The notes under the pieces are model-generated. The model ran no database searches and was not told where the DNA came from. It worked only from the letters and a program-made list of their open reading frames with translations. This document shows positions 3,906 to 51,460 of a DNA stretch of 64,000 bases, piece by piece. The stretch covers positions 2,597-66,596 of the forward strand of contig JBJHBT010000012.1 in the NCBI GenBank assembly GCA_050485645.1, in the 5' to 3' direction. The DNA is from Gammaproteobacteria bacterium (GTDB taxonomy: Bacteria > Pseudomonadota > Gammaproteobacteria > Steroidobacterales > Rariloculaceae). Position numbers and translations under genes: made by a program. Numbering within the stretch: position 1 is the first letter of the stretch; every line of letters begins with the position of its first letter.

Positions 3906-3933
3906 TGGCGAAGGCCCGGAAACGGGCGCAGGA

Positions 3934-5106: not shown

Positions 5107-5246
5107 CGGCTGTGGAACTGATTGACTGAACCCGCTGGGATTCTAAACCAGCTGACGGTGGTTATGTCTACCGACCGCGTCAGGGTATTGCCGCGAGGTC
5201 GCCGGCCGGTGTCTGCAGGTGGGCCGCCATGCGTGGGCGGGCATCG

Positions 5247-6405: not shown

Positions 6406-6744
6406 TCAGCGCGGCAGTCCCGTCTCGAGCCGGATCAGACCGGCTGCGATACGTTCAGGATTCACCTGGTAGGTGCCATTGGCGATCGCGTCGCGGATGC
6501 TCTGGACGCGCTGGCTGTCCAGCGGCGCGCCGGCTTCATCGGCTGCCGCCAGGATGCTGCGGGCGGTGGGTGTCAGTGTGACCTGCTCACTGGCGGGTTC
6601 GCGCTGCGCGGCCTGCTGCCGTACTTCGCCTCGTCCGGTTTCCGGCTTGATCGCGTCGACCGGTTCGATTCTGGAAACGCCGTTGGTGTTCTTGATATCC
6701 ATCACTTCAGCCTTGTCAGGTACCCTGCGGACCCCGCAATCCAT
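6406..6744 (-). CDS. flgM: Anti-sigma-28 factor FlgM
   Basis: C-terminal SQRVQSIRDAIANGTYQVNPERIAAGLI matches the FlgM sigma-28-binding region. The likelier start may be the internal ATG at 6702 (MDIKNTNG, AAGG 9 nt upstream). It lies between flgA and flgN. Confidence 0.8.
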   Translation of the reverse strand: MDCGVRRVPDKAEVMDIKNTNGVSRIEPVDAIKPETGRGEVRQQAAQREPASEQVTLTPTARSILAAADEAGAPLDSQRVQSIRDAIANGTYQVNPERIAAGLIRLETGLPR

Positions 6745-6766: not shown

Positions 6767-6794
6767 ACATCGGCAGCGGAATCCGGATCTTTAG
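6767..6794 (-). promoter_or_regulatory. Sigma-28 (FliA) type promoter for flgM-flgN
   Basis: Minus strand reads CTAAAG-N14-GCCGATGT (plus strand ACATCGGC-N15-TTTA). Consensus is TAAA-N15-GCCGATAA; the -10 matches 6/8 and the -35 TAAAG is exact. Confidence 0.6.
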
Positions 6795-17563: not shown

Positions 17564-18544
17564 ATGAATGGCACACGAATGTCCACTTCCATGGTGTACG
17601 CCAACGGCATCAACAGCATCCAGCGCCAGCAGACGGAACTGGCGAGGCTTCAGCAACAGCTTGCCACCGGGCGCCGGATCCTGTCGCCTTCCGATGATCC
17701 GGCAGGGGCGGTGCAGTCGCTGAAGTTTCGCGAGGGCATTGCCGCGGTCGATCAGTACGCACGCAATGCGATGATGGCGAACACTCGCCTGGAACTCGAG
17801 GAGAGCGTGCTGGCGCAGTTCGGCGACGTGCTCCAGCGCGGCCGCGAGCTGGCATTGACCGCCGCCAACGGCACACAGACCAATGAGTCGCGGGCGGCGA
17901 TTGCCGTGGAGATCCGGCAGCTCGCGGACGCCCTGGTGGACCTGGGCAATACCCGTGATGCGAACGGCGAGTATCTGTTCGCCGGGTATCGTTCCACGGA
18001 ACCCCCGTTTGTGCGCAATGGCGGCGGCGAGGTGGTGTTTCAGGGCGATGGCGGGCAGCGCCGGGTGGCGATTTCGCCGGACCGCAGCGTTGCGGTGGGC
18101 GACAGCGGGGATGCCTTCATGCGGCTGACGATTCAGGGCGTTGCAGACCCGGACGACGATCCGCCCGTGGTGCCTGATGTGCGGGTTTCGATGTTCGGCG
18201 TGCTCGACGACATGGCCACTGCCCTGTCCACGCCGCGCACCACGCCGGCCGCCGTCGCGCAGCTTCACGATGAGATGAACCTGTCGTTGCAGGGGTTCGA
18301 TCAGGCGCTGGGCCGTGTTCTCGAGCTGCGTACCGGCGTCGGAACGCGCCTGAACACCATTGAACGCCAGTCCGTCGCCAACGATGACCACAGGCTGCAG
18401 CTGCAGACCGCACTGTCGCAGATCGAGGACCTGGACTACGCCGAGGCGATCAGCCGTTTCAACCTGCAACAGGTGGCCCTGGAAGCGGCGCAGACGACCT
18501 ACGTGCAGTTCGGCCGGCTGAGTCTGTTCGATTATCTGAAGTGA
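17564..18544 (+). CDS. flgL: Flagellar hook-associated protein 3 FlgL
   Basis: Flagellin-like N-terminus (LARLQQQLATGRRILSPSDDPAGA) and C-terminus (DLDYAEAISRFNLQQVALEAAQTTY). Follows flgK. Confidence 0.9.
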   Translation: MNGTRMSTSMVYANGINSIQRQQTELARLQQQLATGRRILSPSDDPAGAVQSLKFREGIAAVDQYARNAMMANTRLELEESVLAQFGDVLQRGRELALTAANGTQTNESRAAIAVEIRQLADALVDLGNTRDANGEYLFAGYRSTEPPFVRNGGGEVVFQGDGGQRRVAISPDRSVAVGDSGDAFMRLTIQGVADPDDDPPVVPDVRVSMFGVLDDMATALSTPRTTPAAVAQLHDEMNLSLQGFDQALGRVLELRTGVGTRLNTIERQSVANDDHRLQLQTALSQIEDLDYAEAISRFNLQQVALEAAQTTYVQFGRLSLFDYLK

Positions 18545-20178
18545 ACGGTGTGGTGAGCGGCAGGGCGATCCCGACGGCGGAAGAACCGCGCCATCGGCCA
18601 CTCCCAGCGGAGGCGGCAGAGGACGTGGGAGGGGCGGCTGATGTCCGGGCGACGCCGGTTCAGCAGGCCCAGGCGCGCAAGCGGGCTCAGGCGGCGCTGG
18701 CCGACGGGGAATGGCGCGTGGCGGAACGACTTTTCCGCGCGCTGCTGAGCGTGGATCCGGGAGACCGGCATGCGCTGAAGGGGATGGCGGCGATCTGTCT
18801 GTCGACACGACGTCACAATGAGGCCCTTGCGTTCGCAACGCGTCTGCGCGAGCTGGCGGATAGCGACGCGGAATCCTTCAATCTCCTGGGCGCGGTGTAC
18901 TACGAGCTGGGTCGACCGGATGCCGCCGCGGAGGCGCTGCGCGAGGCCTTGCGTCTGGACCCTTCCAGCGATGCGGCTCTGGACAACTACGCTCTGATAC
19001 TGCGGTCGCAGGGGCAACTGGAAACCGCATCCAGCATGTTCGGGGCGTTGCTGGCCAGACATCCGCGCAATCCGCGACTGTGGCAGCGCTATGCGGAGTC
19101 ACGTGCGTTCGCCGCCGACGCGCCCGAGGTGGAACTGCTGGACACGCTGCTCGCCGCGACCGAATCCGACACCACCCCTGGCACTGGCCAGGGTGATCGT
19201 GCGCTGCTGCTGTCATCCAGAGCCAAGATGCATCTGGATGCCGGTGACGCAGACGCCGCATTCGCCGCTTTCCGTCAAGCCAACGCCTTGCGCCGTCAGT
19301 GTCATGCCGACGCTTTCGAACCATTCCGCCGTGGTGAGCCGCTCGATCGGGCCGAGCGGTTGATCCGGGGGATCACGGCGGATGTGTGTGAGCACTGGCG
19401 CGGGCGGGTACGGCCAAGGCGCGGCGTCACCCTGCTCCTTGGGCCTCCACGATCAGGGAAATCACTGCTCGAAAGTGCGCTGGCCGCACACGCCGCGATC
19501 ACGACCTACGGCGAGATGGACACGCTGGACCTGTCGCTGAAGCAGCTCGGGCCGGTATTTGCCGGCCAGGATCCCGCCGCACTGGTCCGCATCGGCAAGG
19601 CGGAAGCCAGACGGGCAGCGGCCGTCGTGGATGCAAGCCTTGGCGATGCGTCGCAGCAGCAGGTGTGTACCCGCCTGTTGACAACGCCGGCGCTGAATCA
19701 GCATGCAGGTACCCTGATGCTGCTCAATCCGGCAATGCGCCTTGTGATCTGTCAGCGGGATCCGGTAGCGAATGCGATGGCGATCTATACGCGACATTTC
19801 GATCGGCCTCAGCCCTACGCCTGGCAGGTGGATACGGTAGCCGAGTATGTGGCGGTGTATCGACGTCTGGCGCGTCATTGGGCGGACCTGTTTCCGAATC
19901 GGGTGGTGTGCGTGGACTACGAGGACCTGGTTGCAGCGCCGGACGAGACCGTTGCGCGCGTGTTGGCATTTCACGACCTGCCGTGGCAGTCCGCCTGTGC
20001 CAATCGGCACGGCTTCGAGCTGTCGCCGGCAACGGTTGGTTATTCCGGCAGCGTCGACGGCCGGGCACGCATCAGTCCCGCGTTCAGCAACATCAAGGCG
20101 GTGTTCGGCAACCAGGTGCCCCTGTTCCGGGATGCGCTGGAACGGGCCTTCGATCGCGTGCGGAGGCGGCTCGGATGA
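18541..20178 (+). CDS. TPR-repeat protein fused to a sulfotransferase domain (putative flagellar modification enzyme)
   Basis: GTG at 18541 overlaps the flgL stop (GTGA). The N-terminal half has TPR-like repeats (NLLGAVYYELGRPDAAAEALREALRLDPSS). The C-terminal half has sulfotransferase PAPS-binding-like motifs LLLGPPRSGKSLLES and ICQRDPVANAMAIY. Confidence 0.7.
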   Translation: MNGVVSGRAIPTAEEPRHRPLPAEAAEDVGGAADVRATPVQQAQARKRAQAALADGEWRVAERLFRALLSVDPGDRHALKGMAAICLSTRRHNEALAFATRLRELADSDAESFNLLGAVYYELGRPDAAAEALREALRLDPSSDAALDNYALILRSQGQLETASSMFGALLARHPRNPRLWQRYAESRAFAADAPEVELLDTLLAATESDTTPGTGQGDRALLLSSRAKMHLDAGDADAAFAAFRQANALRRQCHADAFEPFRRGEPLDRAERLIRGITADVCEHWRGRVRPRRGVTLLLGPPRSGKSLLESALAAHAAITTYGEMDTLDLSLKQLGPVFAGQDPAALVRIGKAEARRAAAVVDASLGDASQQQVCTRLLTTPALNQHAGTLMLLNPAMRLVICQRDPVANAMAIYTRHFDRPQPYAWQVDTVAEYVAVYRRLARHWADLFPNRVVCVDYEDLVAAPDETVARVLAFHDLPWQSACANRHGFELSPATVGYSGSVDGRARISPAFSNIKAVFGNQVPLFRDALERAFDRVRRRLG

Positions 20179-20234
20179 CCACGACGCCAATGACCACGAC
20201 GCCGATGACCGCGGCAGGGATGACAGCGGCACGC
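20175..20234 (+). repeat. 15-bp tandem repeat x4 (ATGACCACGACGCCA-like)
   Basis: Units at 20175-20189, 20190-20204, 20205-20219 and 20220-20234. They read MTTTP MTTTP MTAAG MTAAR in the frame of a possible 78-aa ORF (20175-20411). Confidence 0.8.
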
Positions 20235-20325: not shown

Positions 20326-20352
20326 TAAAGGTCGGCGCACTCGGGTCGATAC
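20326..20352 (+). promoter_or_regulatory. Sigma-28 (FliA) promoter of fliC
   Basis: TAAAG-N14-GTCGATAC versus consensus TAAA-N15-GCCGATAA (-10 matches 6/8). About 100 nt upstream of the fliC ATG. Confidence 0.7.
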
Positions 20353-20450: not shown

Positions 20451-21929
20451 ATGTCCCAGGTCATCAACACCAACGTGATGTCGCTGAATGCCCAGCGCAA
20501 TCTGGCGAACTCGGGTGGGCAGCTCGCAGTGTCGCTGCAGCGTCTGTCGTCGGGCCTGCGCATCAACAGCGCAAAGGACGACGCGGCAGGGCTCGCGATT
20601 TCCGAGCGGTTCACAACACAGATTCGCGGCCTGAATCAGGCGATCCGCAACTCCAACGACGGTATCTCACTGGCACAGACCGGTGAAGGCGCCCTGCAGG
20701 AGATTTCCAACAACCTGCAGCGCATCCGCGAGTTGGCCGTGCAGTCGGCGAACGCCACCAACAGTGCCTCCGACCGTGCGGCGCTGGATGCTGAAGTGCA
20801 GCAGCGGCTGGCGGAAGTGAACCGCATCGCCAACCAGACGTCGTTCAACGGCCAGAAAATTCTCGACGGCAGCTTCGGTTCGGCCGTGTTCCAGGTTGGC
20901 GCCAATGTTGGCGAAACGATTTCGCTGAGCCTTGGCACCAGCATGCGCACCACCGACATCGGTGCGATCGCCACGGCCACTTCGGTGGATCTGGGCACGC
21001 TGATCTCGGAAGCCGAGGATGCGGTGCCGACGACGTCCGTGGCGGCAGGCGCCTTCACCGACGCCACCGGCGCCACCGGATCGACGTTCACGCTGACGGT
21101 GGGTGGTGTACAGATCGTCGATCTGGCGACCACGGGAGCTGCCGTTCCGATCACCGCAGCGGATCTTGACGCCGACTTCGACGTCGCCGCTCAGGGAGCA
21201 CTGGCTGCCGCCGGGATTACGTTCTCAGGCAGCTTCGCCGACGGGACGATGACGTTCACCCGCGCCGACGGGCAGGATTTTGATGTTGCTCGTGGCGGTA
21301 CGGCGGCTGGCGGTACGTTTGCCGACGGCGCGTTTGTCGGTACGCACAGCAACGGTACCGAAGCTTCCCCGGCCGAGGCGCTGACGATTACCGACCTGAC
21401 TCTGCAGATCGGTGACGCCGAGGCGGTCGCGGTGACCGCCGACGACTATGATTCGGTGCAGGGCTTCATCGATGCACTGAACTCGGCGCTGGGCAGTGAC
21501 GGCACCGCTACGCTGAACGAGAACGGAACGGTCAGCATTCTGGCTTCGCAGCCGATCACCATCAGTGGCGCGGATCAGGCCACGGTGTTCAGTGCGGCGA
21601 GCTACGCGGCCTCGGGCGACCTGGCTGGTGTAACGGTGACATCGGTTTCGGCGGCCAATGATGCGATACAGCGTATCGACTCGGCGCTGACCGCCGTGAG
21701 CAGCCTGCGCAGCGATTTCGGCGCGGTGCAGAACCGCTTCGAATCGGTGATCGCGAACCTGAACACGGTATCCGAGAACCTGTCGGCCTCGCGGTCGCGC
21801 ATCATGGACGCGGACTTCGCGGCGGAAACCGCGAACCTGACCCGCGCCCAGGTGTTGCAGCAGGCCGGTGTCGCGATCCTGGCACAGGCCAACGCGATGC
21901 CGCAGAACGTTCTTGCGCTGCTGCGCTGA
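20451..21929 (+). CDS. fliC: Flagellin FliC
   Basis: 492 aa. N-terminal MSQVINTNVMSLNAQRNLANSGGQLAVSLQRLSSGLRINSAKDDAAGLAISERF and C-terminal AAETANLTRAQVLQQAGVAILAQANAMPQNVLALLR, with an Ala/Thr/Gly/Asp-rich central domain. Confidence 0.97.
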   Translation: MSQVINTNVMSLNAQRNLANSGGQLAVSLQRLSSGLRINSAKDDAAGLAISERFTTQIRGLNQAIRNSNDGISLAQTGEGALQEISNNLQRIRELAVQSANATNSASDRAALDAEVQQRLAEVNRIANQTSFNGQKILDGSFGSAVFQVGANVGETISLSLGTSMRTTDIGAIATATSVDLGTLISEAEDAVPTTSVAAGAFTDATGATGSTFTLTVGGVQIVDLATTGAAVPITAADLDADFDVAAQGALAAAGITFSGSFADGTMTFTRADGQDFDVARGGTAAGGTFADGAFVGTHSNGTEASPAEALTITDLTLQIGDAEAVAVTADDYDSVQGFIDALNSALGSDGTATLNENGTVSILASQPITISGADQATVFSAASYAASGDLAGVTVTSVSAANDAIQRIDSALTAVSSLRSDFGAVQNRFESVIANLNTVSENLSASRSRIMDADFAAETANLTRAQVLQQAGVAILAQANAMPQNVLALLR

Positions 21930-42462: not shown

Positions 42463-43851
42463 ATGAACGTTAAACGATTCCTGGCGCCGGACATGCGCCG
42501 TGCGATCAATCAGGTCAGGGCCGTTCATGGTCCGGACGCGGTGATCCTGTCGAGTCGTTCGGTGGGCGAGGGCGTGGAGATCGTCGCGGCCATCGACTAC
42601 GACCCGGAGCTGCTGGCCGCGCTGTCGCGCGAGTCGGCGTCGCAGGAGGAATCGGATCAGGCGCAGTCCCGCGCCACCGCCACCGCCACCGCCGACAGAC
42701 CGGGTGACAGCAGCCCCGATAGCGGGCCGGATGCCGGCGTGGGTGCCAACGCCCGGACCGAATCGCGGGGCGACGCACCGCTCGACGTACAGGCCGACGT
42801 ACAGGCCGACGCACAGGCCGACGCACGGGGAGAGAAGGGGTCGGCCGACATGGCATCGACAGCGCTGGCTCAGGATGCGTCCGCGGCGCCAGCGACGGAG
42901 ACGGTGACCACCGGTGCCGCAGGTGGCGTGAAGGGCGTTGTGGTTGACACATCGGATCCGGCGCTGGCAACCCTGGAGCTGGAGGTGAAGGCACTGAAGA
43001 ACATGCTGCGGGAGCAGTTCGCGCGGCTGAGCTGGGCCGACATGAAAACCTTCGATCCCGAGCGTGCGGCACTGCTGCGCAGAGTCGAATCCATCGGCAT
43101 TGCCCCGGCGCTGGCCGCGACACTGGTGGCGGAGGTGGCGAACATCAACGAGCCGGACAGGGCGTGGCGCGAGGTGCTGTATGCCCTGACGCGGCGTGTG
43201 CAGGTGCTGCGTGACGATCCGCTGGAGCAGGAAGGCGCGATCGCGCTGATCGGTCCCACCGGCGTCGGCAAGACGACCACGATCGCCAAGCTCGCCGCGC
43301 GGCATTGCCTGCGCTACGGCCGCGATTCGCTGGCACTGATCACCACGGACAATTTCCGCGTCGGCGCGCAGCGGCAGCTGGATGCCTTCGGCGCCATTCT
43401 CGGTGTACCGGTGCGTCGTGCCGACACCGGAGAAGAACTGACCGTGCTGCTGGACGAGTATCGCAGCAGGCGACTGGTGCTGATCGACACCGCCGGCATC
43501 GCGCCGCGCGACGCCCGGCTTGCAGCGACGATGAAGCCGCTCGAGACGGCACCCGGACTGCGCCGTTTCCTCGTCCTGTCGGCCAACCTTCAGGAATCGG
43601 TGATGCGCGATGCGTTGCGGTGCTTTGGCGGCGCGTCGCTGTCGGGCGTGGTGCTGAGCAAACTGGACGAAGCCAATGGTCTGGGTGCCGCATTGTCGGC
43701 GCTGGTTGATGAGCGGTTGCCGGTTGCGTGGCTCAGCGATGGTCAGCGGGTTCCGGAAGACCTGCGACTGGCACGCATCGCCAATCTGATCGGCTGGGCG
43801 ACCCGGCCGGTCGATGATGTGGAAAAGGATGTGCGGCATGCGGCAGCCTGA
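42463..43851 (+). CDS. flhF: Flagellar biosynthesis SRP-type GTPase FlhF
   Basis: N-terminal MNVKRFLAPDMRRAINQVRAVHGPDAVILS. G-domain motifs LIGPTGVGKTTTIAKLA, LIDTAG and LSKLDE. Confidence 0.93.
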   Translation: MNVKRFLAPDMRRAINQVRAVHGPDAVILSSRSVGEGVEIVAAIDYDPELLAALSRESASQEESDQAQSRATATATADRPGDSSPDSGPDAGVGANARTESRGDAPLDVQADVQADAQADARGEKGSADMASTALAQDASAAPATETVTTGAAGGVKGVVVDTSDPALATLELEVKALKNMLREQFARLSWADMKTFDPERAALLRRVESIGIAPALAATLVAEVANINEPDRAWREVLYALTRRVQVLRDDPLEQEGAIALIGPTGVGKTTTIAKLAARHCLRYGRDSLALITTDNFRVGAQRQLDAFGAILGVPVRRADTGEELTVLLDEYRSRRLVLIDTAGIAPRDARLAATMKPLETAPGLRRFLVLSANLQESVMRDALRCFGGASLSGVVLSKLDEANGLGAALSALVDERLPVAWLSDGQRVPEDLRLARIANLIGWATRPVDDVEKDVRHAAA

Positions 43852-44719
43852 AGACCAGGCCGCCGGCCTGCGGCGGCTCTATGCACCTTCGCAACTGAAA
43901 GTAATCGCAGTGGCCAGCGGTAAGGGCGGCGTGGGCAAGACCACGGTGGCCATCAATCTGGCCGTGGCGCTGGCGAAGCAGGGCAGGGGAACGCTGCTCA
44001 TGGACGCCGACCTGGGGCTTGCCAACGTCGATGTGATGCTCGGTCTGAAGCCCGTCGCGACCGTGGAACAGGTGTTGTCCGGCGAGCATCGACTCGAGGA
44101 CGTCATGCTCGAAGGTCCGGCGGGGCTGAAGATTCTGCCTGGTGCTTCGGGCGTGTCGGCGCTGGCGCGTCTGGATTCCAGTGTTCAGCACGGCCTCATC
44201 AGTGCGTTTTCGACGCTGCCCTATACACCGGATGCGATGGTCATCGATGTGGCCACCGGCATCGATGCGTCCGTGCTCGGCTTCTGCGGTGCCGCGCACG
44301 AAGTCGTCGTCGTGGTCTGCGACGATGCGGCATCGATCACCGATGCCTATGCGCTGATCAAGCTGCTGTCGCGCGAGCGCGGCGTGAAGTGCTTCCGGAT
44401 TTTGTGCAACCGCGTGAATCACGCGACTCAGGGAATGGCGCTGTTCCGCCGACTGGAAAAAGTCTGTGATCGCTTTCTCAGCATCACCCTGCACCACTTC
44501 GGTTCCGTACCCGACGACCCGGCCGTGGCGTTCTCGGCGCGTATCCGGCGCTCGGTGGTGGAGTCGCTGCCCACAAGCCCTGCCGGCCGGACATTCAAGG
44601 ATCTGGCCGCCCGTGCCGATAAATGGGCAGTACCTCGGTCATCGAGTGCCAGGCCGCTGTTCTTTCTGGAGCGACTGCTGCGGAACGGTGAGGCCTCGGC
44701 CATGACGGCGGGGGGCTGA
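43838..44719 (+). CDS. flhG: MinD-type ATPase FlhG/FleN (flagellar number regulator)
   Basis: ATG 43838 overlaps the flhF end. Deviant Walker A VASGKGGVGKTTVAINLA. Follows flhF and precedes fliA. Confidence 0.9.
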   Translation: MRQPEDQAAGLRRLYAPSQLKVIAVASGKGGVGKTTVAINLAVALAKQGRGTLLMDADLGLANVDVMLGLKPVATVEQVLSGEHRLEDVMLEGPAGLKILPGASGVSALARLDSSVQHGLISAFSTLPYTPDAMVIDVATGIDASVLGFCGAAHEVVVVVCDDAASITDAYALIKLLSRERGVKCFRILCNRVNHATQGMALFRRLEKVCDRFLSITLHHFGSVPDDPAVAFSARIRRSVVESLPTSPAGRTFKDLAARADKWAVPRSSSARPLFFLERLLRNGEASAMTAGG

Positions 44720-44720
44720 C

Positions 44721-45440
44721 ATGTACGCCGCGAACGCTTCGGAAGAGTGGGGACGCCTGGTCGAGTGCCACATGGAGCTGGTGCGGCGTATCGCGTTTCA
44801 TCTGCTCGGGAGGTTGCCACCCGCGGTGCAAGTGGAGGATCTGATACAGGCCGGTGCCATCGGATTGCTGGACGCGGCGAAGCACTACGACAGCAGCCAT
44901 GGCGCGAGCTTCGAGACCTACGCCGGTCTGCGCATACGCGGCGCCATGCTCGACGAACTGCGCCGCAGCGACTGGTCGCCGCGCTCGGCCAATCGCCTTG
45001 CGCGTCAGATCAGCCAGGCCATGCAGGCGGTGGAAGCGAGCACCGGCAGCGCGGCGGGTTCGGCCGATGTGGCTGCGGCACTGGGCGTGGATGTGGAGAG
45101 TTATCACGACATGGTGCGTCGTGCGAGTCAGGCGAGGGTGTTCAGCCTGGAGGAAATCTACGGGCCGGACGATGGCGCCGACGTGCTCGGCGGCGGTGAT
45201 GACCCGGCCGGCGAAGTGCTGCGCGGTGACTTCGGCGAAGCACTGCAGGCGGCGATTGCCGAACTGCCGGAACGGGAGCAGCTGGTGATGTCGCTGTACT
45301 ACGACGATGAGCTGACGCTGAAGGAAATCGGCGCCGTGCTCGGCGTAACCGAATCGCGTGTGTGCCAGCTGCACGGGCAGGCACTGATCAGGCTGCGATC
45401 GAAGCTGAGTGAATGGGAATACGACGAGATATCGGTCTGA
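44721..45440 (+). CDS. fliA: Flagellar sigma factor FliA (sigma-28)
   Basis: Region 2 (DLIQAGAIGLLDAAKHYD) and region 4 HTH (LTLKEIGAVLGVTESRVCQLHGQALIRLR). 239 aa. Confidence 0.95.
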   Translation: MYAANASEEWGRLVECHMELVRRIAFHLLGRLPPAVQVEDLIQAGAIGLLDAAKHYDSSHGASFETYAGLRIRGAMLDELRRSDWSPRSANRLARQISQAMQAVEASTGSAAGSADVAAALGVDVESYHDMVRRASQARVFSLEEIYGPDDGADVLGGGDDPAGEVLRGDFGEALQAAIAELPEREQLVMSLYYDDELTLKEIGAVLGVTESRVCQLHGQALIRLRSKLSEWEYDEISV

Positions 45441-45464: not shown

Positions 45465-46205
45465 ATGGACGTACTTAGCCTGCTTGGAGTCGTACTCGCG
45501 ATCGTCGCCATCCTTGGTGGCAGCGTGCTCAAGGGCAGCGGAGTGGCCGCGCTGTGGAACGGAGCCGCGTTCCTGATCGTTGTCGTGGGCACATTCGCTT
45601 CGGTGTTCATCCAGGTGCGCATGCAGGTGTTCACGCACGGACTTCGCATTCTGCCGTGGATATTCAAGTCGCCGACCGCTGATGCGGAGCGGCTGATCGA
45701 GCAGGTGGTGGGCTGGAGTCAGGTGGCGCGCAAGGACGGCCTGCTGGGTCTGGAGAGCATCGCCGAACAGGAAACCGATCAGTTCGTGCGCAAGGGTCTG
45801 CAGCTGCTGGTGGACGGGGCCGAGCCGGAAACGATCCGCCATGTCATGGATGTGGAAATCGAAAGCCGCGAGCACTTCGATCAGCAGGGCGCGAAGGTGT
45901 TCGAGAGCCTGGGCATCTATGCGCCGACGCTGGGCATCATCGGCGCGGTAATGGGCCTGATCAGCGTCATGCAGAACCTCGCCGAGCCGGAAAAGCTGGG
46001 TCCGGGTATCGCCACCGCATTCGTGGCGACAATCTACGGCATTGCATCGGCCAATCTGCTGTTTCTGCCCATCGGCAACAAGCTCAAGGGGCTGATACAG
46101 GCAACCGTGCAGCAGCGTGAACTCGTTCTGGAAGGCCTGGTCAGCATTGCCCGCGGTGACAATCCGCGCGGTATCGAAACCAAGCTGCGCGGCTTTCTGG
46201 TCTGA
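45465..46205 (+). CDS. motA: Flagellar stator protein MotA (MotC/PomA-like size)
   Basis: 246 aa with 4 TM segments. GIYAPTLGIIGAVMGLI and TAFVATIYGIASANLLFLPIG are MotA/ExbB-family motifs. Confidence 0.9.
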   Translation: MDVLSLLGVVLAIVAILGGSVLKGSGVAALWNGAAFLIVVVGTFASVFIQVRMQVFTHGLRILPWIFKSPTADAERLIEQVVGWSQVARKDGLLGLESIAEQETDQFVRKGLQLLVDGAEPETIRHVMDVEIESREHFDQQGAKVFESLGIYAPTLGIIGAVMGLISVMQNLAEPEKLGPGIATAFVATIYGIASANLLFLPIGNKLKGLIQATVQQRELVLEGLVSIARGDNPRGIETKLRGFLV

Positions 46206-46215
46206 AGTCTTCGCG

Positions 46216-47169
46216 ATGGCACGGCGCAAGCGGCATGAAGATCACGTGAACCACGAGGCGTGGGCCATTCCCTACGGCGACCTGATCACGCTGCTGCTGG
46301 CCTTCTTCGTCGTGATGTATGCGCTGTCATCGGTCAACGAGGGCAAGTACAGAATCCTCTCCGACTCCCTGATAGCCGCGTTCCGTTCCCAGCCGAAGTC
46401 GCTGGAGCCGATCCAGGTGGGTCAGCCATCGCGCTCCGCATCGGTGCCGGATGTTCGTCAGCAGCGCACGCTGGTGCCTCTGGAAATCGACAGCTACCTC
46501 GCCACACAGATGGCACGGATGCCCGAAGGCGGGCGCCACGAACTGGCCATGATGCGTACCGCGGGCCTCACGCCGGACGAAATCGATGCGGCGATGGCAC
46601 TGATCGAGGACATCACCACGCAGATCGCCGACGAACTGTCCGAGTTGATCGACGCCGACATGGTGCGGCTGCGGCCGGAACGTTTCTGGCTGGAAGTGGA
46701 AATCAACACCAGCGTGCTGTTTGCGACGGCCAGCGCGGAACTGGCCGCGGATGCGGAGCCGATCGTGCGGCGGCTGGGCGACATCCTCGCGCACACGCCC
46801 ACACGCGTGCAGGTGGAGGGCCACACGGATTCGCTGCCGATCAGTACGGCAACCTATCCGTCGAACTGGGAGCTGTCCGCAGGCCGGGCCGCCACGGTCG
46901 TCAGGCTGTTTGCCGGTGGTGGCGTGAATCCCGCGCAGCTGTCGGCGGTCGGTTTCTCCGAGTTTCGCCCGGTGGACGACAACGAATCCGCTGCCGGGCG
47001 CGCGCGCAACCGGCGGGTTGTGATCGTGATCATGGCCGGGCGTGATGATCACGCGGGAAAAGTCTGGACCGAAGCTGAAATGGGCGAACGCGGATGGACA
47101 ATGGGTGAACCCTCCGCTTCTTTTACACTCGATGGAGCTGGCTATGGAATTCAATATCACGACCACTGA
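46216..47169 (+). CDS. motB: Flagellar stator protein MotB (OmpA-like peptidoglycan-binding domain)
   Basis: MARRKRHEDHVNHEAWAIPYGDLITLLLAFFVVMYALS includes the conserved plug/TM Asp. OmpA-like VEGHTDSLPI...SNWELSAGRAATVVRLF...NRRVVIVI. Confidence 0.92.
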   Translation: MARRKRHEDHVNHEAWAIPYGDLITLLLAFFVVMYALSSVNEGKYRILSDSLIAAFRSQPKSLEPIQVGQPSRSASVPDVRQQRTLVPLEIDSYLATQMARMPEGGRHELAMMRTAGLTPDEIDAAMALIEDITTQIADELSELIDADMVRLRPERFWLEVEINTSVLFATASAELAADAEPIVRRLGDILAHTPTRVQVEGHTDSLPISTATYPSNWELSAGRAATVVRLFAGGGVNPAQLSAVGFSEFRPVDDNESAAGRARNRRVVIVIMAGRDDHAGKVWTEAEMGERGWTMGEPSASFTLDGAGYGIQYHDH

Positions 47170-47587
47170 TCTCATCTATCTGGTGCTCGGGCCTGGCGCC
47201 CTGTTGATCGGCGCGTTGCTGCTGCGGAGCGATCTGCGACTGCAGCGTCGTCATGACGCGCTGCAGGTCGAGCATGCCGGACTGCGGGAGAGCTGTGCGG
47301 GACTGACGGGGAAACTGGACGAACTGCGTGACGAATGTCATGCGGTTGCCGAACGCGAACGGCAGCTGCGCGAGCGGGTCGAGCAGTTGCATCGGGATCT
47401 TCAGCATGTGCTGCTCAAGGATGCCGAGACGGGCCCGTATTTTCGTGCCGTGCGTCAGGCCGAGAGTGGTGTCGGAGTGGATTCCCTGGTGGAACGTACC
47501 GGCATCACGCGCGCCGAGGCGGCGCTGATCGTGCAGCTGCATGGCAGCTCCACAGTCAGCCCGGCGCCGATGCAGGCCAGTGCCTGA
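47144..47587 (+). CDS. Small membrane-anchored protein, DUF2802-like (flagellar-cluster associated)
   Basis: ATG 47144 with GGAG RBS, overlapping the motB 3' end. N-terminal TM (LIYLVLGPGALLIGALLL), a coiled coil, and a C-terminal GITRAEAALIVQLHG helix-turn-helix-like tail as recalled for DUF2802. Not verified by search. Confidence 0.5.
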   Translation: MEFNITTTDLIYLVLGPGALLIGALLLRSDLRLQRRHDALQVEHAGLRESCAGLTGKLDELRDECHAVAERERQLRERVEQLHRDLQHVLLKDAETGPYFRAVRQAESGVGVDSLVERTGITRAEAALIVQLHGSSTVSPAPMQASA

Positions 47588-47670
47588 TCCCGAAGTCCGC
47601 TGACGCTGACGACCGCTTCCGGTGACATCCGCCGATCATCGGCACGGCACCGAACAGCAGAGCCGCTGAA

Positions 47671-48546
47671 TCAGGACAGGGTCGCTTCCAGTTCCTCGGT
47701 GACGCCGGCAAGCGTCGCCGCGATCTGTTCGACATCGTCATTATCCAGGCCGAGCGCGGACAGTGCCGGACGCTGCAGCTGCTGCGCCTGCGGGTCGCGC
47801 ACGAAGCCGATGTGCTGTTTGTGAGCCAGCACATCGGCCAGATGCACCACACAGCGTTGCGGCAGGGTGGCCGCGGGGCCGGTGGCGGGATCATGGTGGG
47901 AGCCGATGGCATCGGCGATTGAATCGGGCAGTCGCCAGTTGCGTGCGAGGCTGTAGCCATAGTCGTGATGGCCCACTGCCAGGGCGCTGAGTTCACCGAG
48001 CAGCTCGACCAGTTGCGCATCGGCCGCTGCCGCGGACTCGCGCGCATGTGAAACCTGAAGTTCGATCACGAAGCCGATGTCGTGCAACAGGCCGGCCAGA
48101 AAGGCTTCGTCACCGTTGATCCTGCCCGACACCGTCGCGGCCAGGCGCGCGGCGCCGGCAACCGCCAGCGAGTGTCGCCACAACGCCCGCGGAGAAGCTT
48201 CGCCGCGCCAGACCTTGCCGCGCAGCATGGCGCCGACACTGGTGGCGATGGCGATATTGCGGATTGCCGGTCCGCCGAGAACGATGACCGCGCGCTGTAT
48301 CGTGCCGATGCGTCCGGCTGTGCCATAGAACGCCGAGTTGACGACCTTGAGAATACGCAGGCACAGGGCGGGATCCGTCGATACAAGTTTTTCCAGTTCA
48401 TGGCTGGTGTAATCGTGATCCTGCATCAGTTCGATGATGCGCAGCGTCACGTCCGGCAGCATGGCCACGCGCCGGACACGCCGGATCGCGCTGTCGGCCA
48501 GCTCCGCTCTGCGAGCGCCGTCGTTCGCGGATACCGCATTCAGCAT
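47671..48546 (-). CDS. HDOD domain protein
   Basis: MLPDVTLRIIELMQD...STDPALCLRILKVVNSAFYG...IQRAVIVLG...LWRHSLAVA...EAFLAGLLHDIGFVI is a typical HDOD pattern. Start overlaps the upstream gene stop. Confidence 0.85.
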   Translation of the reverse strand: MLNAVSANDGARRAELADSAIRRVRRVAMLPDVTLRIIELMQDHDYTSHELEKLVSTDPALCLRILKVVNSAFYGTAGRIGTIQRAVIVLGGPAIRNIAIATSVGAMLRGKVWRGEASPRALWRHSLAVAGAARLAATVSGRINGDEAFLAGLLHDIGFVIELQVSHARESAAAADAQLVELLGELSALAVGHHDYGYSLARNWRLPDSIADAIGSHHDPATGPAATLPQRCVVHLADVLAHKQHIGFVRDPQAQQLQRPALSALGLDNDDVEQIAATLAGVTEELEATLS

Positions 48547-50324
48547 CGGGCGCCGCCAGTCGGCAATGCCGCGAGCTGTCCGGCCGGTGAGCCGTTACAC
48601 AGATTGAACAGTGCCCGCGCCGGTAGCGGTCGCGACAGGTAGAAGCCCTGCGCGTAGTCGCAGCCCAGCGCCTGCAGTGTGATCAGCTGGTCGCTGGACT
48701 CCACGCCCTCGGCGATGGTGTCGATGCCAAGGTCATGTGCCAGTTCGATGATGGCATTCAGCACCGCGACCAGATCCCGGCTGTTGCCGATGTCGGTAAC
48801 GAAGGCCGGCGCGATCTTGGCGATGCTCAGCGGGAACTGACGCAGGCAGGCCAGCGACGAATAGCCGCTGCCGAAGTCGTCCATTGCGATACGCACACCC
48901 AGCTCCGCCAGTTCGCGCAGTGCATTGCGCGATACGTCGGTGTCGCGCATCAGGCTGGCTTCGGGCACCTCGACGACCAGATCGGTCGGTTCAAGTCCGG
49001 AGTCGGCGAGGATGTCGGTGTAGCGTCGGGCGTTTTTCCGTGCCAGCAGCTGCTGCACGGCGATGTTGACGGCCAGTGTCGCGGGCGCGCGTTCTGCCAG
49101 CAGCATGCGCCAGTCCTTCATCTGCCGGCACGCCTCGCCCAGCACCCATTCCCCGATAGGCACGATGAGGCCGGTGTCCTCGGCGACGGACATGAAAGCA
49201 GCCGGCGACAGCAGGCCGTAGTCCGGATGCTGCCAGCGCAGCAGTGCTTCCACCGATGTGATCTGTCCGCCGTGCAGCGAAAACACCGGCTGATAGACGA
49301 GCAGGAACTGTTCCCGGTCCAGCGCACGGTGCAGGTCGCGCTCCATGGACAGGCGCTGTCTGGCCACTTCGCGCATCCGGCCATCGAAGACCACGTGGTG
49401 CCCCTTGCCGGCAGCCTTGGCCGAATACATGGCCGTGTCCGCATCGCGCAGCAGTTCGTCCACTGAATCGTGACCCAGTTCGCTGGTGACGATGCCGACA
49501 CTGGCGGTGGAGCATATTTCATGCCCGTCGATGAGATGAGGCTTCTCGAACGCCGCCAGCAGCCGCTCGGTGACACGCGCCGCGTCCTCCGGTCTGCTCA
49601 GTCCGGTGAGCAGCACGACGAACTCGTCACCGCCCACCCGCGCGACGGTGGTCTGGTTGGTGGCGGTCTGACCGACGGTATCGTGCACGCGCAGATTGTT
49701 GCGGAACCGTAACGCGATTTCGCGCAGCAGTTTGTCACCGACATCGTGACCAAGACTGTCGTTGATGGCCTTGAAGCGGTCGAAGTCGAAGTAAAGCACC
49801 GCGAAGCAGAAGTCCGGCATGGCCTGACTCTGCTCGATGGCGCGGGTGATACGGTCTCCGAGCAGATGGCGATTCGGCAGACCCGTCAGGTTGTCGTGCA
49901 GAGCCTGCTGCTGAAGACGTTGCAGCAGACTCTGGGTCTTGATCGCGGCGCCGACCCTGGCGCGCACCTCGGCCGCGCAGAATGGCTTGCGGATGTAGTC
50001 GCAGGCGCCGAGTGTGAATGCCTCGGACACCGTGTTCGAATCGGCAGCCGACGTGACCATCATCACCGGAATACGTGCCGTGGCGGTGTCATCCTTGAGC
50101 TGTCGCAATACCGACAGGCCGTCCATGTCGGGCATCTGATAGTCGAGCAGGATCAGCGCCGGATCAGCACGCGTGGCAAGCTCCAGGCCTTCCTGCCCGG
50201 ACGTGGCGCGCAGCAGCTCCAGCGGCAGCGAGCGCAGCTGTGCGGCGAGCAGGTCGTGTATCTGCGGTGTATCGTCGATGGCCAGTATGCGTTTCACAGC
50301 CGACTCCTTCTCCACTGCCGTCAT
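48540..50324 (-). CDS. Response regulator with REC-GGDEF-EAL domains (c-di-GMP turnover)
   Basis: REC (ILAIDDTPQIHDLL...LILLDYQMPDMDG...KPF). Intact GGDEF (VARVGGDEFVVLL). Intact EAL (VEALLRW...DDFGSGYSSL...KIAPAF). Confidence 0.92.
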   Translation of the reverse strand: MTAVEKESAVKRILAIDDTPQIHDLLAAQLRSLPLELLRATSGQEGLELATRADPALILLDYQMPDMDGLSVLRQLKDDTATARIPVMMVTSAADSNTVSEAFTLGACDYIRKPFCAAEVRARVGAAIKTQSLLQRLQQQALHDNLTGLPNRHLLGDRITRAIEQSQAMPDFCFAVLYFDFDRFKAINDSLGHDVGDKLLREIALRFRNNLRVHDTVGQTATNQTTVARVGGDEFVVLLTGLSRPEDAARVTERLLAAFEKPHLIDGHEICSTASVGIVTSELGHDSVDELLRDADTAMYSAKAAGKGHHVVFDGRMREVARQRLSMERDLHRALDREQFLLVYQPVFSLHGGQITSVEALLRWQHPDYGLLSPAAFMSVAEDTGLIVPIGEWVLGEACRQMKDWRMLLAERAPATLAVNIAVQQLLARKNARRYTDILADSGLEPTDLVVEVPEASLMRDTDVSRNALRELAELGVRIAMDDFGSGYSSLACLRQFPLSIAKIAPAFVTDIGNSRDLVAVLNAIIELAHDLGIDTIAEGVESSDQLITLQALGCDYAQGFYLSRPLPARALFNLCNGSPAGQLAALPTGGARC

Positions 50325-50427
50325 CGCCGCAACTTCCCTGGCAACCAGACCGATCCCCGTGTCACGACACCCGGTGCCGTGTCACTACGCTTGTGGCACC
50401 AGCATCATCCGGCTGATGCCACGGCTG

Positions 50428-51273
50428 TCATCCCAACCCCAGACTGTCGCGGAGTTCGTCGCGCTCGGCGATGAGACTGTCCAGCTTCGACCTCGCGATG
50501 CCCAGACGCTGAAGGTCGGGGCGGCCGTCCAGCAGCGCCAGTGTTTCGTCGGCAACCGGGGTGGAGATCCGCGACACCAGGATTCCCAGCGTCAGCACGT
50601 CGATCATCGGTTCGCGCTCTTCGACGTCGGGTTCGCACTGACGTTCTATCGCCGTCGCGGCGTCGTCCGGCAGGCGCCAGTACTCGGCGATGGCCTTGCC
50701 AACGCTCGGGTGCCAGGTGCGGATGAGTTCTTCCGCGGATTCGGCGTCGGCGAACAGTTCCGGATACTGCGGCGCCCTGCTGTAAAGGTAGATCACGCCG
50801 ATGTTGTGCAGCAGGCCAACCACCAGTGATTCGTCCGCGGAAACCCTGCCGCTGCCGCGGGCGATCAGGTAGCACGATGCCGCGGTGCGGGCGGCATCGG
50901 CCCACGCCGGCCGCAGCAGATGTTCAACCTGGCGGTACTCCTCGCGCTCGCGCAGCTGGCGCATCGCGAATGTCATTGTGGCGGACTGCACGGCGCTGGC
51001 ACCCAGACGCGAGATGGCGGCTGAGATGTCCGTCGTTGGTTTGCCGTTGCGTCGGAAGGTGAAGGAGTTGGCCATGGTCAGTATGGTGCCGACAAGGGCC
51101 GGTTCACTGCGCAGCACCCGGGCGAGCCTGTCGATGGAATAGTCCGGGTCCGCGAGTGCACTGCGAATGTTCATGACCGATTCTGAAAGCGCGGGCAGAT
51201 GCAGATCGCCCGCAGACAACTCGTCCGCCAGCCCCTGGACCAGCGAGTAGGCATCAGCTTGATTGACAGACAC
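50428..51273 (-). CDS. HDOD domain protein
   Basis: LPALSESVMNIRSALADPDYSIDRLARVLRSEPALVGTILTMANS...ISRLGASAV...LVVGLLHNIGVIYL is the HDOD pattern. First gene after the sigma-28 promoter at 51320-51346. Confidence 0.85.
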   Translation of the reverse strand: MSVNQADAYSLVQGLADELSAGDLHLPALSESVMNIRSALADPDYSIDRLARVLRSEPALVGTILTMANSFTFRRNGKPTTDISAAISRLGASAVQSATMTFAMRQLREREEYRQVEHLLRPAWADAARTAASCYLIARGSGRVSADESLVVGLLHNIGVIYLYSRAPQYPELFADAESAEELIRTWHPSVGKAIAEYWRLPDDAATAIERQCEPDVEEREPMIDVLTLGILVSRISTPVADETLALLDGRPDLQRLGIARSKLDSLIAERDELRDSLGLG

Positions 51274-51319
51274 GGGATCTCCTGTTCGAAGGCGGCACGG
51301 CGCCGTGGTCTCGGTCCCG

Positions 51320-51346
51320 TTATCGGCCGATTCAGCGCGGCCTTTA
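51320..51346 (-). promoter_or_regulatory. Sigma-28 (FliA) promoter for the HDOD / REC-GGDEF-EAL / HDOD operon
   Basis: Minus strand reads TAAAG-GCCGCGCTGAATCG-GCCGATAA (plus strand TTATCGGC-N15-TTTA). The -10 matches 8/8, the -35 is exact and the spacing is consensus. About 47 nt upstream of ATG 51273. Confidence 0.8.
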
Positions 51347-51382
51347 GCGCGGCCTTTAGCGCGGCCTTTAGCGCGGCCCTTA
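51335..51382. repeat. 12-bp tandem repeat x4 (GCGCGGCCTTTA), each unit carrying a TAAAG element on the minus strand
   Basis: Units at 51335-46, 51347-58, 51359-70 and 51371-82 (last unit CCCTTA). The promoter-proximal unit supplies the -35 of the sigma-28 promoter. Confidence 0.9.
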
Positions 51383-51460
51383 GCGCGACATGGCGCCGCG
51401 GACCAGGTTCAGCGCGAACGAAGCTGCGGACGCCGGTTCGCCGCGCGCCGGGTGGATCAT

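Follow-up and report, generated by a model that had tools for sequence, protein, structure and literature searches.

An operon of three minus-strand genes, in the order HDOD1 (a single-domain HDOD protein), REC-GGDEF-EAL response regulator and HDOD2 (another HDOD protein), is preceded by what is quite probably a genuine, conserved sigma-28 (FliA) promoter, which would place this c-di-GMP/HDOD operon in the late flagellar regulon. The promoter (minus strand, 51346..51320) reads TAAAG-N14-GCCGATAA and is the only sigma-28 match without a mismatch in the window (the whole 64-kb stretch of DNA that was analysed). About 4e-4 perfect matches would be expected by chance, by our own estimate from base composition (65% GC, 128 kb on both strands). 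The operon and its control region comprise the following features.

51342..51346, minus strand: -35 element TAAAG, the promoter-proximal copy within a tandem repeat, 14 nt 5' of the -10 box
51320..51327, minus strand: -10 element GCCGATAA, the exact sigma-28 consensus
51274..51319, minus strand: region from the -10 box to the HDOD1 start, with the predicted 5' UTR; nearly identical in the related locus L081
50428..51273, minus strand: HDOD1, 281 aa, GTG start, single HDOD domain (Pfam HDOD 2.4e-33)
50325..50427, minus strand: gap of 103 nt between HDOD1 and the regulator gene, with a 19-nt insertion relative to L081
48540..50324, minus strand: REC-GGDEF-EAL response regulator, 594 aa (Pfam, above threshold)
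47671..48546, minus strand: HDOD2, 291 aa (Pfam HDOD 1.1e-44, HD 4.6e-11)

The promoter and its flagellar context

The initial annotation had ranked this site as the best sigma-28 match in the window, ahead of the fliC promoter, and had placed it about 47 nt before the first HDOD gene. Both points hold: the site has 0 mismatches as compared to 2 at fliC, and 46 nt separate the end of the -10 box from the GTG at 51273, which is preceded by a Shine-Dalgarno sequence (AGGAG, 51283-51279). Transcription would start near 51312. No significant RNA structure was found in the 51274..51319 region (z = +0.51), nor did it give an Rfam match above the gathering score. Upstream, a DUF1015 gene in the same orientation ends 187 nt before HDOD1; this intergenic region holds no sigma-70-like site, and a search for a terminator between the DUF1015 gene and the sigma-28 promoter returned none, so that read-through could contribute to expression.

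Of all sigma-28 matches in the window, the best four lie upstream of flgM, fliC, fliA and the HDOD operon, the first three being the only others with two mismatches or fewer. The sigma factor, its anti-sigma factor and the end of the flagellar cluster are all encoded here, on a metagenome-assembled contig from an uncultured gammaproteobacterium.

6406..6744, minus strand: flgM, anti-sigma-28 factor (TIGR03824, 59.7 bits against a cut-off of 40.75)
6793..6767, minus strand: sigma-28-like site TAAAG-N14-GCCGATGT, preceding flgM
20326..20352, plus strand: sigma-28-like site TAAAG-N14-GTCGATAC upstream of fliC, 2 mismatches, an internal positive control
20451-21929, plus strand: fliC, with flagellin N- and C-terminal domains
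44595..44622, plus strand: sigma-28-like site TCAAG-N15-GCCGATAA in the 3' end of fleN, 98 nt before fliA
44721..45440, plus strand: fliA, sigma-28 factor (NCBIfam NF005413, 275.7 bits against a cut-off of 201)
45465-46205, plus strand: motA (Pfam), at the flagellar cluster end
46117-47169, plus strand: motB (Pfam), at the flagellar cluster end
47042-47587, plus strand: DUF2802 gene (Pfam), convergent with the HDOD operon
47588..47670, no strand: gap of 83 nt between the convergent HDOD2 and DUF2802 genes

FliA contains Pfam sigma-70 regions 2, 3 and 4, and the site within fleN occupies the same position in L082, L096, L097, L100 and L105. The motA-motB-DUF2802 neighbourhood recurs in L082, L084, L085, L096, L097, L100, L105 and L108. 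Transcripts from the HDOD2 and DUF2802 sides presumably both end in the 83-nt gap between them, which contains no canonical intrinsic terminator.

In the established model, completion of the hook-basal body leads to export of FlgM, which frees FliA. The same order of events would apply in the present host: upon FlgM export, sigma-28 RNA polymerase would bind the site at 51346..51320, and the resulting transcript would run through HDOD1, across the terminator-free 103-nt gap, into the regulator gene and on to a translationally coupled HDOD2. The annotation's proposal of a FliA-dependent, late-class c-di-GMP module is thus supported, as a reading of sequence, by the presence of both fliA and flgM, by the company of the best sites and by conservation in relatives.

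Conservation of the promoter and extent of the transcript

An association of promoter and gene was sought in related uncultured bacteria, and a site of the form T[A/C]AAG-N14/15-[G/A]CCGATAA was found 22-75 nt before HDOD1 orthologues (32-96% identity) in about ten independent lineages, some with loci outside flagellar clusters. The background for comparable sites in unrelated loci is about 0.006 per 150 nt. Distances below are to the HDOD1 start.

L081: TAAAG-N14-ACCGATAA, 53 nt
L082: TCAAG-N14-ACCGATAA, 53 nt
L105: TCAAG-N14-ACCGATAA, 51 nt
L108: TCAAG-N14-ACCGATAA, 51 nt
L085: TCAAG-N14-GCCGATAA, 22 nt
L086: TCAAG-N14-ACCGATAA, 43 nt
L096: TCAAG-N14-GTCGATAA, 22 nt
L097-99: TCAAG-N15-ACCGATAA, 51 nt
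L093/94: TCAAG-N14-GCCGATAA, 75 nt
L104: TAAAA-N14-GCCGATAA, 33 nt
L110: TAAAG-N14-GCCGATAA, a perfect match, 55 nt

The [G/A]CCGATAA core stands at the equivalent place in L081, L082, L085, L086, L093/94, L097, L104, L105, L108 and L110, and the -35 element reads TAAAG or TCAAG (TAAAA in L104) and keeps its spacing (N15 in L097-99). The site is kept in L104 and L110 though these loci lie outside flagellar clusters. In L096, L097 and L105 the gene upstream is divergent, and HDOD1 therefore requires a promoter of its own. No site was found directly upstream of HDOD1 in L083, L084, L091, L100, L089 and L090; the L091/L100 group has only a weaker TCAAG-N14-GCCGTCAA ahead of an upstream kinase-HDOD gene. 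In L103, the HDOD gene is the last, overlapping member of a flhB...fliA-motAB-DUF2802 string.

Were the sigma-28 match fortuitous, the operon would depend on an unrecognised promoter or on read-through from the co-oriented DUF1015 gene, which lacks a terminator; given the chance expectation and the retention of the site in about ten lineages whose upstream genes differ, several of them divergent, we regard this as extremely improbable. The extent of the transcript deserves closer weighing. The annotation had described three tightly packed genes with the last two overlapping; the overlap is confirmed (7 nt, ATGCTGA, 48540-48546, joining the HDOD2 start to the regulator stop), but HDOD1 is followed by the 103-nt gap. 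The sigma-28 promoter might then serve HDOD1 alone, with the regulator and HDOD2 forming a separate unit transcribed from within the gap, in which case the c-di-GMP enzyme would not be a late flagellar gene. The gap measures 83-131 nt in the window, L081, L082 and L105, and its region includes a weak sigma-70-like match (ATGACA-16-GATGAT, 50431..50404, 9/12), from which the regulator and HDOD2 might additionally be transcribed; moreover, HDOD1 stands alone in many relatives, and L001 has the regulator-HDOD2 pair without HDOD1 or a sigma-28 site, behind a REC-Hpt gene. Against a separate unit, the gap has no terminator-like structure, the sigma-70-like match is no better than chance (about 0.7 expected) and is not kept in L082, the gap shrinks to 30 nt in L108, and gene order and orientation are constant across five genomes. 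In the window and in L082, L105 and L108, HDOD1-regulator-HDOD2 converges on DUF2802-motB-motA; L081, a short contig, covers only HDOD1 and the beginning of the regulator gene. On balance, we judge the separate unit unlikely and retain the three-gene transcript. Within it, we propose that HDOD1 is the ancestral sigma-28-driven gene, and that the regulator-HDOD2 pair joined it on the downstream side, as a cassette, in some lineages.

The 12-bp repeat over the -35 box

The -35 box lies within a 12-bp tandem repeat (51334..51387, minus strand) which Tandem Repeats Finder reports with period 12, 4.5 copies, 97% matches and a score of 101, the highest in the window. It consists of three perfect units TAAAGGCCGCGC (51335-51370, plus-strand coordinates), one imperfect unit TAAGGGCCGCGC (51371-51382) and partial ends. 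Of the three additional TAAAG copies originally counted upstream, two are exact and the third is TAAGG. GCGC short direct repeats flank the unit here, as they do the single TAAAG unit of L081, and provide a ready substrate for slippage. The simplest reading is that the fourfold repeat, known from this genome only, probably arose recently when the -35 segment expanded by strand slippage, and is probably harmless: neutral, or at most mildly modulatory.

The repeat could instead be functional, whether as an array (UP-like or for recruitment) or as a holoenzyme decoy, with copy number tuning promoter strength. It is positioned exactly over the -35 box, and with a start near 51312 the extra A-rich boxes would fall at about -46..-42 and -58..-54, roughly the zone in which the alpha-subunit C-terminal domain contacts UP elements; a pseudo -10 box CGCGCTAA, with 3 mismatches, lies 14 nt downstream of each upstream TAAAG. 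However, neither L081, which is 96% identical and carries one TAAAG, nor any of the 18 orthologous upstream regions examined shows the repeat; the pseudo -10 box lacks the CGA core, the 12-bp period shifts successive copies by about 51 degrees in helical orientation, and a GC-rich unit with three A's makes a poor UP element. A functional array is very unlikely on these grounds, and the suggestion that the repeat could titrate or recruit sigma-28 holoenzyme is not supported, in view of its absence in relatives, its poor pseudo -10 box and a 12-bp spacing that is out of phase with the helix. The argument against classical phase variation, on the other hand, is correct by geometry: whatever number of whole units is gained or lost, one TAAAG stays 14 nt upstream of the -10 box, so that the -35/-10 spacing is unaltered. 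Contingency promoters (Haemophilus hif, Neisseria porA and opc) likewise carry a short tandem repeat in the core promoter, but there the repeat number shifts the spacing and switches expression.

The encoded proteins and known systems

The receiver pocket of the regulator is canonical (D17, D18, D61, T91, K113). Its kinase gene is not adjacent in this genome. Its GGDEF (231-235) and EAL (359-361) motifs are intact, as first described; the RxxD I-site is absent. The EAL site is essentially intact, with N420, E452/E455, D482-D483, K503, E539/E542 and Q559 retained along with loop 6 (DFGSGYSS); in the window protein alone, K-I-A replaces the K-(M/V)-D of orthologues, so that Ala takes the place of a conserved Asp two positions beyond the catalytic Lys. 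Taken together, these features suggest a phosphorylation-gated c-di-GMP enzyme. By analogy with PdeH and BifA, its net role would be that of a phosphodiesterase that keeps c-di-GMP low in newly flagellated cells. Alternatively, the regulator could act chiefly as a diguanylate cyclase, its late expression supplying c-di-GMP for a motor brake or for surface commitment. The intact GGDEF of every orthologue, the missing inhibitory I-site and the Ala substitution speak for this, as do the nearest structural matches for residues 132-571, the solved GGDEF-EAL tandems of MucR (5m3c, E = 2.5e-102) and MorA (4rnh, 2.5e-95). Both are bifunctional; they are also membrane-bound sensors that are not known to have a receiver domain or to be under sigma-28 control. 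A cyclase role is nonetheless unlikely, given that the EAL residues and loop 6 are all present, that the best NCBIfam similarities are to the phosphodiesterases DibA and PRK10060 (all under equivalog cut-offs), and that the FliA-controlled c-di-GMP enzymes known so far are phosphodiesterases (PMC4866697).

HDOD1 has 65 homologues, and its closest solved structure is 3i7a. In its subfamily His-Asn replaces His-Asp, H156 and N157 being invariant, and HDOD1 would probably serve as a sensor or adaptor without catalytic activity. HDOD2 exceeds the cut-off for HDIG (TIGR00277, 32.4 bits against 27.6), and its family invariants (H125, H155, D156, H193, H217, H218, D238) complete the HD/HDIG metal-ligand set. 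With all seven HD-type ligands retained, HDOD2 is the better candidate for a partner to the EAL domain, whether catalytic or nucleotide-binding; action on pGpG would be one speculative example. To our knowledge, no function of the HDOD domain has ever been demonstrated.

The sigma-28 promoter of pdeH couples low c-di-GMP with completion of the flagellum. BifA has a degenerate GGDEF motif and is not known to have a receiver domain or flanking HDOD genes; its gene is located elsewhere in the genome. FliA-controlled c-di-GMP phosphodiesterases are thus already known: PdeH (YhjH; E. coli and Salmonella), whose class 3 flagellar gene has a sigma-28 promoter, as is proposed here, and BifA (PA4367; P. 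aeruginosa and P. putida), a FliA-dependent GGDEF-EAL protein like the regulator, which lowers c-di-GMP and thereby permits motility; FliA control is described for yhjH in E. coli and for bifA in P. aeruginosa (PMC4866697). Unlike the regulator, PdeH is a stand-alone EAL protein without receiver, GGDEF or HDOD neighbours, and is not encoded beside stator genes.

HDOD proteins also influence flagellar motility: mutants in GsmR and HdpA (Xanthomonas campestris), SadB (Pseudomonas), Cj0248 (Campylobacter), and PFL_0554 and PFL_5871 (P. protegens) alter motility or flagellar gene expression (PMC11004494, PMC6543031), and c-di-GMP binding has been reported for SadB (PMC6543031). These motility-linked proteins have other architectures (REC-HDOD, YbaK-HDOD), whereas HDOD1 belongs to a distinct small HN subfamily, and the searchable literature reports no sigma-28 promoter for any of the six. 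A small HDOD subfamily, with HN for HD, that carries a sigma-28 promoter is modestly new, though six relatives lack a direct site. Fusions of EAL and HDOD domains are common, with 128 proteins recorded (PMC2952852).

Predicted promoter of the operon and its conservation

The predicted operon lies on the minus strand and encodes an HDOD protein of 281 aa (HDOD1), a REC-GGDEF-EAL response regulator of 594 aa (the regulator), and a second HDOD protein of 291 aa (HDOD2). The window was scanned for sigma-28 sites with spacers of 13-15 nt and up to two mismatches, and only four were found: before flgM, fliC, fliA, and the operon. This distribution suggests that in this genome the motif has predictive value. 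The elements of the operon promoter and the other three sites are as follows:

51346-51342, minus strand: -35 element TAAAG, promoter-proximal copy, 14 nt from the -10 element GCCGATAA
51327-51320, minus strand: -10 element GCCGATAA, its end 46 nt before the GTG start codon of HDOD1 at 51273
6793..6767, minus strand: sigma-28-like site just upstream of flgM
20326-20352, plus strand: sigma-28-like site upstream of fliC
44595-44622, plus strand: sigma-28-like site within the 3' end of fleN, 98 nt before fliA

The initial annotation had placed the best sigma-28 match of the window just upstream of the first HDOD gene, and both parts of that claim were upheld. The operon site, TAAAG-N14-GCCGATAA, headed the four with no mismatches and was the sole such match in a motif scan of the window, where approximately 4e-4 perfect matches would be expected by chance on both strands (calculated from 65% GC). 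AGGAG precedes the start codon. Both FliA (NF005413, 275.7 bits against a cut-off of 201) and FlgM (TIGR03824, 59.7 bits against 40.75) were recognized in the same genome by NCBIfam models. The intergenic region between DUF1015 (stop at 51461) and HDOD1 spans 187 nt and, read on the minus strand, contains cgcgc-TAAGGG-ccgcgc-TAAAGG-ccgcgc-TAAAGG-ccgcgc-TAAAGG-ccgcgc-tgaatcg-GCCGATAA. No sigma-70-like promoter was found in these 187 nt, the predicted RNA fold was no better than that of shuffled sequences (z = +0.51), and no Rfam family matched above threshold; a SAM_alpha hit on the repeat (22.3 bits against a cut-off of 36) was taken as a chance match.

Only 65 homologues of HDOD1 were detectable, nearly all of them metagenomic, and the loci of relatives were gathered from metagenome contigs and exact-protein look-ups. 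The pairing of promoter and gene was looked for in these relatives, where its absence would have counted against the initial annotation, and was present in about ten lineages. Sites of the form T[A/C]AAG-N14/15-[G/A]CCGATAA were observed 22-75 nt upstream of HDOD1 orthologues that are 32-96% identical to the protein of the window (loci L081, L082, L085, L086, L093/94, L096, L097-99, L104, L105, L108, and L110), against a background of 0.006 per 150 nt in 1.79 Mb of unrelated loci, both strands. The site is kept in L104, which lies outside a flagellar cluster, and has the perfect consensus in L110 although the HDOD gene there stands among unrelated genes. The upstream neighbour is divergent in L096, L097, and L105, so that the HDOD1 site is the sole candidate promoter at these loci. 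When whole loci of relatives were scanned, any other site with two or fewer mismatches was usually just the conserved one before fliA. Taken together, the motif in the window and its conservation across relatives argue that the predicted sigma-28-type promoter of the operon is real.

Exceptions were also observed. A gene for a Ser/Thr-kinase-HDOD fusion protein of 606 aa is located 43 nt upstream of HDOD1 in L083, L084, L091, L100, and L101, and is itself preceded by a conserved, weaker site, TCAAG-N14-GCCGTCAA. Its positions are as follows:

L100, 8138-9958: kinase-HDOD fusion gene
L101, 3827-5647: kinase-HDOD fusion gene
L091, about 3140-4960: kinase-HDOD fusion gene

The HDOD gene of L103 is the final, overlapping gene of a flagellar operon, and no sigma-28 site was found before HDOD1 in L089, L090, or L095. 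At L085 (852-1415, minus strand, and 1498-1579), two divergent HDOD genes have back-to-back sigma-28-like sites on opposite strands, TCAAT-N14-GCCGATAA and TCAAG-N14-GCCGATAA.

The site within fleN, T[C/A]AAG-N15-GCCGATA[A/C/G] approximately 100 nt before fliA, was kept in five relatives and could reflect either positive autoregulation of fliA or merely conserved FleN codons (…R-A-D-K…):

L082, 16844..16817: fleN-internal sigma-28-like site
L096, 5701..5674: fleN-internal sigma-28-like site
L097, 11151..11124: fleN-internal sigma-28-like site
L100, 13857..13830: fleN-internal sigma-28-like site
L105, 13144..13117: fleN-internal sigma-28-like site

The repeated -35 element

The -35 element is part of a tandem repeat (51334-51387; period 12, 4.5 copies, 97% matches) whose score of 101 was the highest among the 55 rows returned by Tandem Repeats Finder for the window. 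Of the four 12-bp units described initially, three are perfect (TAAAGGCCGCGC), but the farthest upstream is imperfect and reads TAAGGG. L081 was the only close relative in the collections, with 96% identity in HDOD1 and approximately 88% in the flanking DNA; the exact HDOD1 protein was found on a single contig. The corresponding sequence of L081, ggcgc-TAAAG-aacgcgccggatcg-ACCGATAA, has a single -35 box at unchanged spacing and no repeat. A comparable repeat was found in none of 18 orthologous upstream regions. Direct GCGC repeats, 12 nt apart, flank the single TAAAG unit of L081 and every unit of the window, and are a natural substrate for slippage. A 19-nt insertion relative to L081, which duplicates GTGACACGG, was observed in the gap between HDOD1 and the regulator (50325-50427, minus strand). 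It adds a second small intergenic duplication to this operon and suggests, alongside the -35 repeat, that small duplications build up in this lineage.

We conclude from these comparisons that the repeat is best regarded as a recent, lineage-specific expansion and not as evidence of a device for titrating or recruiting sigma-28. That role, proposed in the initial annotation, is disfavoured by the absence of the repeat from L081 and the 18 orthologous upstream regions and by the spacing of the copies, which puts them out of phase on the helix. For the upstream TAAAG copies, the only partner is a pseudo -10 element, CGCGCTAA, with three mismatches. The array could still be a working part of the promoter, its extra TAAAG units drawing sigma-28 holoenzyme or alpha subunits or acting as a local decoy, with slippage then serving as a graded, heritable dial. 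Late flagellar c-di-GMP signalling would in that case be tuned in grades by unit number, unlike on/off phase variation, but we consider this very improbable. A phase-variable (contingency) promoter was rejected. As initially argued, a change in repeat number spares the -35/-10 spacing, given that any state of at least one unit keeps TAAAG 14 nt from GCCGATAA; gain or loss of whole units leaves spacing and core intact, and single-copy L081 is spaced alike. A shared or mobile element was likewise rejected, since the window contains no further occurrence of the 12-mer and the relatives lack any repeat like it. The promoter repeat is unusual, finds no comparative support, and is probably inconsequential; we regard the repeated -35 box as a curiosity.

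Two other repeats were noted in the window. A 12-bp tandem repeat of 4.7 copies, CGACGCACAGGC (score 77; 42771-42826), falls within the 5' part of flhF (42463-43851), whose product presumably has a tetrapeptide repeat in its N-terminal region. A 15-bp repeat of 2.4 copies (20175-20210) is located at the end of a TPR-sulfotransferase gene (18541-20178, plus strand; Sulfotransfer_3, 2.1e-22) immediately upstream of fliC, the product of which may be a flagellin-modifying enzyme.

Arrangement and evolution of the module

The three genes of the operon are located as follows:

50428-51273, minus strand: HDOD1, HDOD
48540-50324, minus strand: regulator, REC-GGDEF-EAL
47671-48546, minus strand: HDOD2, HDOD, also matching HD

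The tight packing initially described for all three applies to the regulator and HDOD2, which overlap by 7 nt, but not to HDOD1 and the regulator, which are 103 nt apart. On the minus strand, the DUF1015-HDOD1 and HDOD1-regulator intervals and the region following HDOD2 were searched for intrinsic terminators, and none was found. A separate promoter in the HDOD1-regulator gap was considered and rejected, the one sigma-70-like match being at chance level only; no sigma-54 GG-N10-GC element was seen there by eye. Convergent with the operon is the series DUF2802-motB-motA-fliA-fleN-flhF-flhA. The FlhA protein shares 74-78% identity with proteins from gammaproteobacterial metagenome-assembled genomes and about 70% with its counterparts in Thioalkalivibrio and Ectothiorhodospira. 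A near-identity DNA search of a plasmid collection returned no match.

In many relatives (L096, L097, and L100 among them) HDOD1 stands alone, convergent on DUF2802-motB-motA. The three-gene form was observed in the window, L082, L105, and L108; the short contig of L081 covers no more than HDOD1 and the beginning of the regulator. At L001, a regulator-HDOD2 pair occurs without HDOD1 and without a sigma-28 site, in a non-flagellar setting behind a REC-Hpt gene. These two arrangements point to HDOD1 as the ancestral sigma-28-driven gene, and the regulator-HDOD2 pair appears to be a cassette put downstream of it in one sub-lineage. When the genome collection was scanned with the regulator protein, almost only paralogues of 32-45% identity were recovered, L001 (57%) being the sole likely orthologue. 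A second HDOD-domain protein often accompanies HDOD1, in the form of HDOD2 (window), the kinase-HDOD fusion, a tandem HDOD (L093/94), or, in L085, a divergently encoded HDOD that has a sigma-28-like site of its own. The regulator of the window has no adjacent kinase; a HisKA/HATPase kinase is encoded directly upstream of HDOD1 in L082 (8553-9686), and the REC-Hpt protein of L001 directly upstream of the regulator (4791-5669).

Encoded proteins and proposed role

The GGDEF and EAL motifs of the regulator are intact, as initially reported. GGDEF occupies residues 231-235 and is invariant in four orthologues; no RxxD I-site was found in the protein. Every catalytic and metal-binding signature position of the EAL domain is present (E359/R363, N420, E452/E455, D482/D483, K503, E539/E542, and Q559), as is loop 6 (DDFGSGYSS). 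Following the catalytic Lys, the window has K-I-A where three orthologues have K-M-D or K-V-D, such that Ala takes the place of the conserved Asp two positions beyond the Lys; over residues 503-508, K-I-A-P-A-F compares with K-(M/V)-D-R-S-F, such that three adjacent, otherwise conserved residues of the domain differ in the window genome only. The REC pocket is complete (D17, D18, D61, T91, K113; Pfam Response_reg, 9e-23) and is partly degenerate in the orthologues of L082 and L105. The closest solved structures were MucR and MorA, and no NCBIfam equivalog cut-off was reached.

Both HDOD proteins matched solved HDOD structures and the HDOD model PF08668 (HDOD1 at 115.7 bits and HDOD2 at 152.8, cut-off 22.9). 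HDOD2 likely holds a metal site, considering that seven His/Asp ligands in the pattern H...HD...H...HH...D (H125, H155-D156, H193, H217-H218, D238) are invariant across 38 homologues and that it passes the HD (43.5 bits against 22) and HDIG (32.4 against 27.6) models. HDOD1 departs from the HD-superfamily ligand set (H156-N157 is invariant across 30 family members), matched neither HD nor HDIG model, and is probably non-catalytic.

HDOD is, to our knowledge, a widespread signalling domain without a demonstrated biochemical function, and we know of no demonstration that it processes pGpG. It has been described as without known activity but possibly c-di-GMP-binding (PMC6543031), and HDOD proteins have repeatedly been linked to motility (PMC11004494; PMC6543031). 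Published comparative genomics lists 128 EAL-HDOD fusion proteins and suggested pGpG processing by HDOD (PMC2952852).

What was observed here comprises the conserved sigma-28-type promoter, the genes present and their order, and the integrity of the motifs; the steps of the mechanism are less certain. The established flagellar hierarchy would place expression of the operon after FlgM export, and the missing terminator and conserved order suggest that all three genes are co-transcribed. The regulator would then be a phosphorylation-gated enzyme with a net lowering of c-di-GMP in newly flagellated cells, a role suggested by the intact EAL residues and the precedents of PdeH and BifA, which are established FliA-controlled c-di-GMP phosphodiesterases (PMC4866697). 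More speculatively, HDOD2 might act on c-di-GMP or pGpG in concert with the EAL domain, and HDOD1 might be a non-catalytic adaptor near the motor.

The locus would be a well-supported further example of direct control of c-di-GMP turnover genes by the flagellar sigma factor, here in an uncultured lineage of Gammaproteobacteria. The more useful by-product is the small HDOD1 subfamily, which has a predicted sigma-28 promoter in about ten lineages, whether within flagellar clusters or outside them, and usually abuts stator genes; no HDOD gene behind a sigma-28 promoter was found in open-access papers. With late flagellar expression predicted for it, this subfamily, together with the translationally coupled pair of EAL and HDIG-type HDOD proteins, offers concrete candidates for tests of HDOD function.

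The HDOD2 family (noted from its match list and from L106 and L107) has a very wide distribution, with 526 matches at E < 1e-20, and its next-nearest relatives, at approximately 40% identity, are mostly from Planctomycetota/Phycisphaerales; the single such locus inspected had no GGDEF/EAL neighbour. The second and third best genome matches to the regulator were likewise from Planctomycetota.
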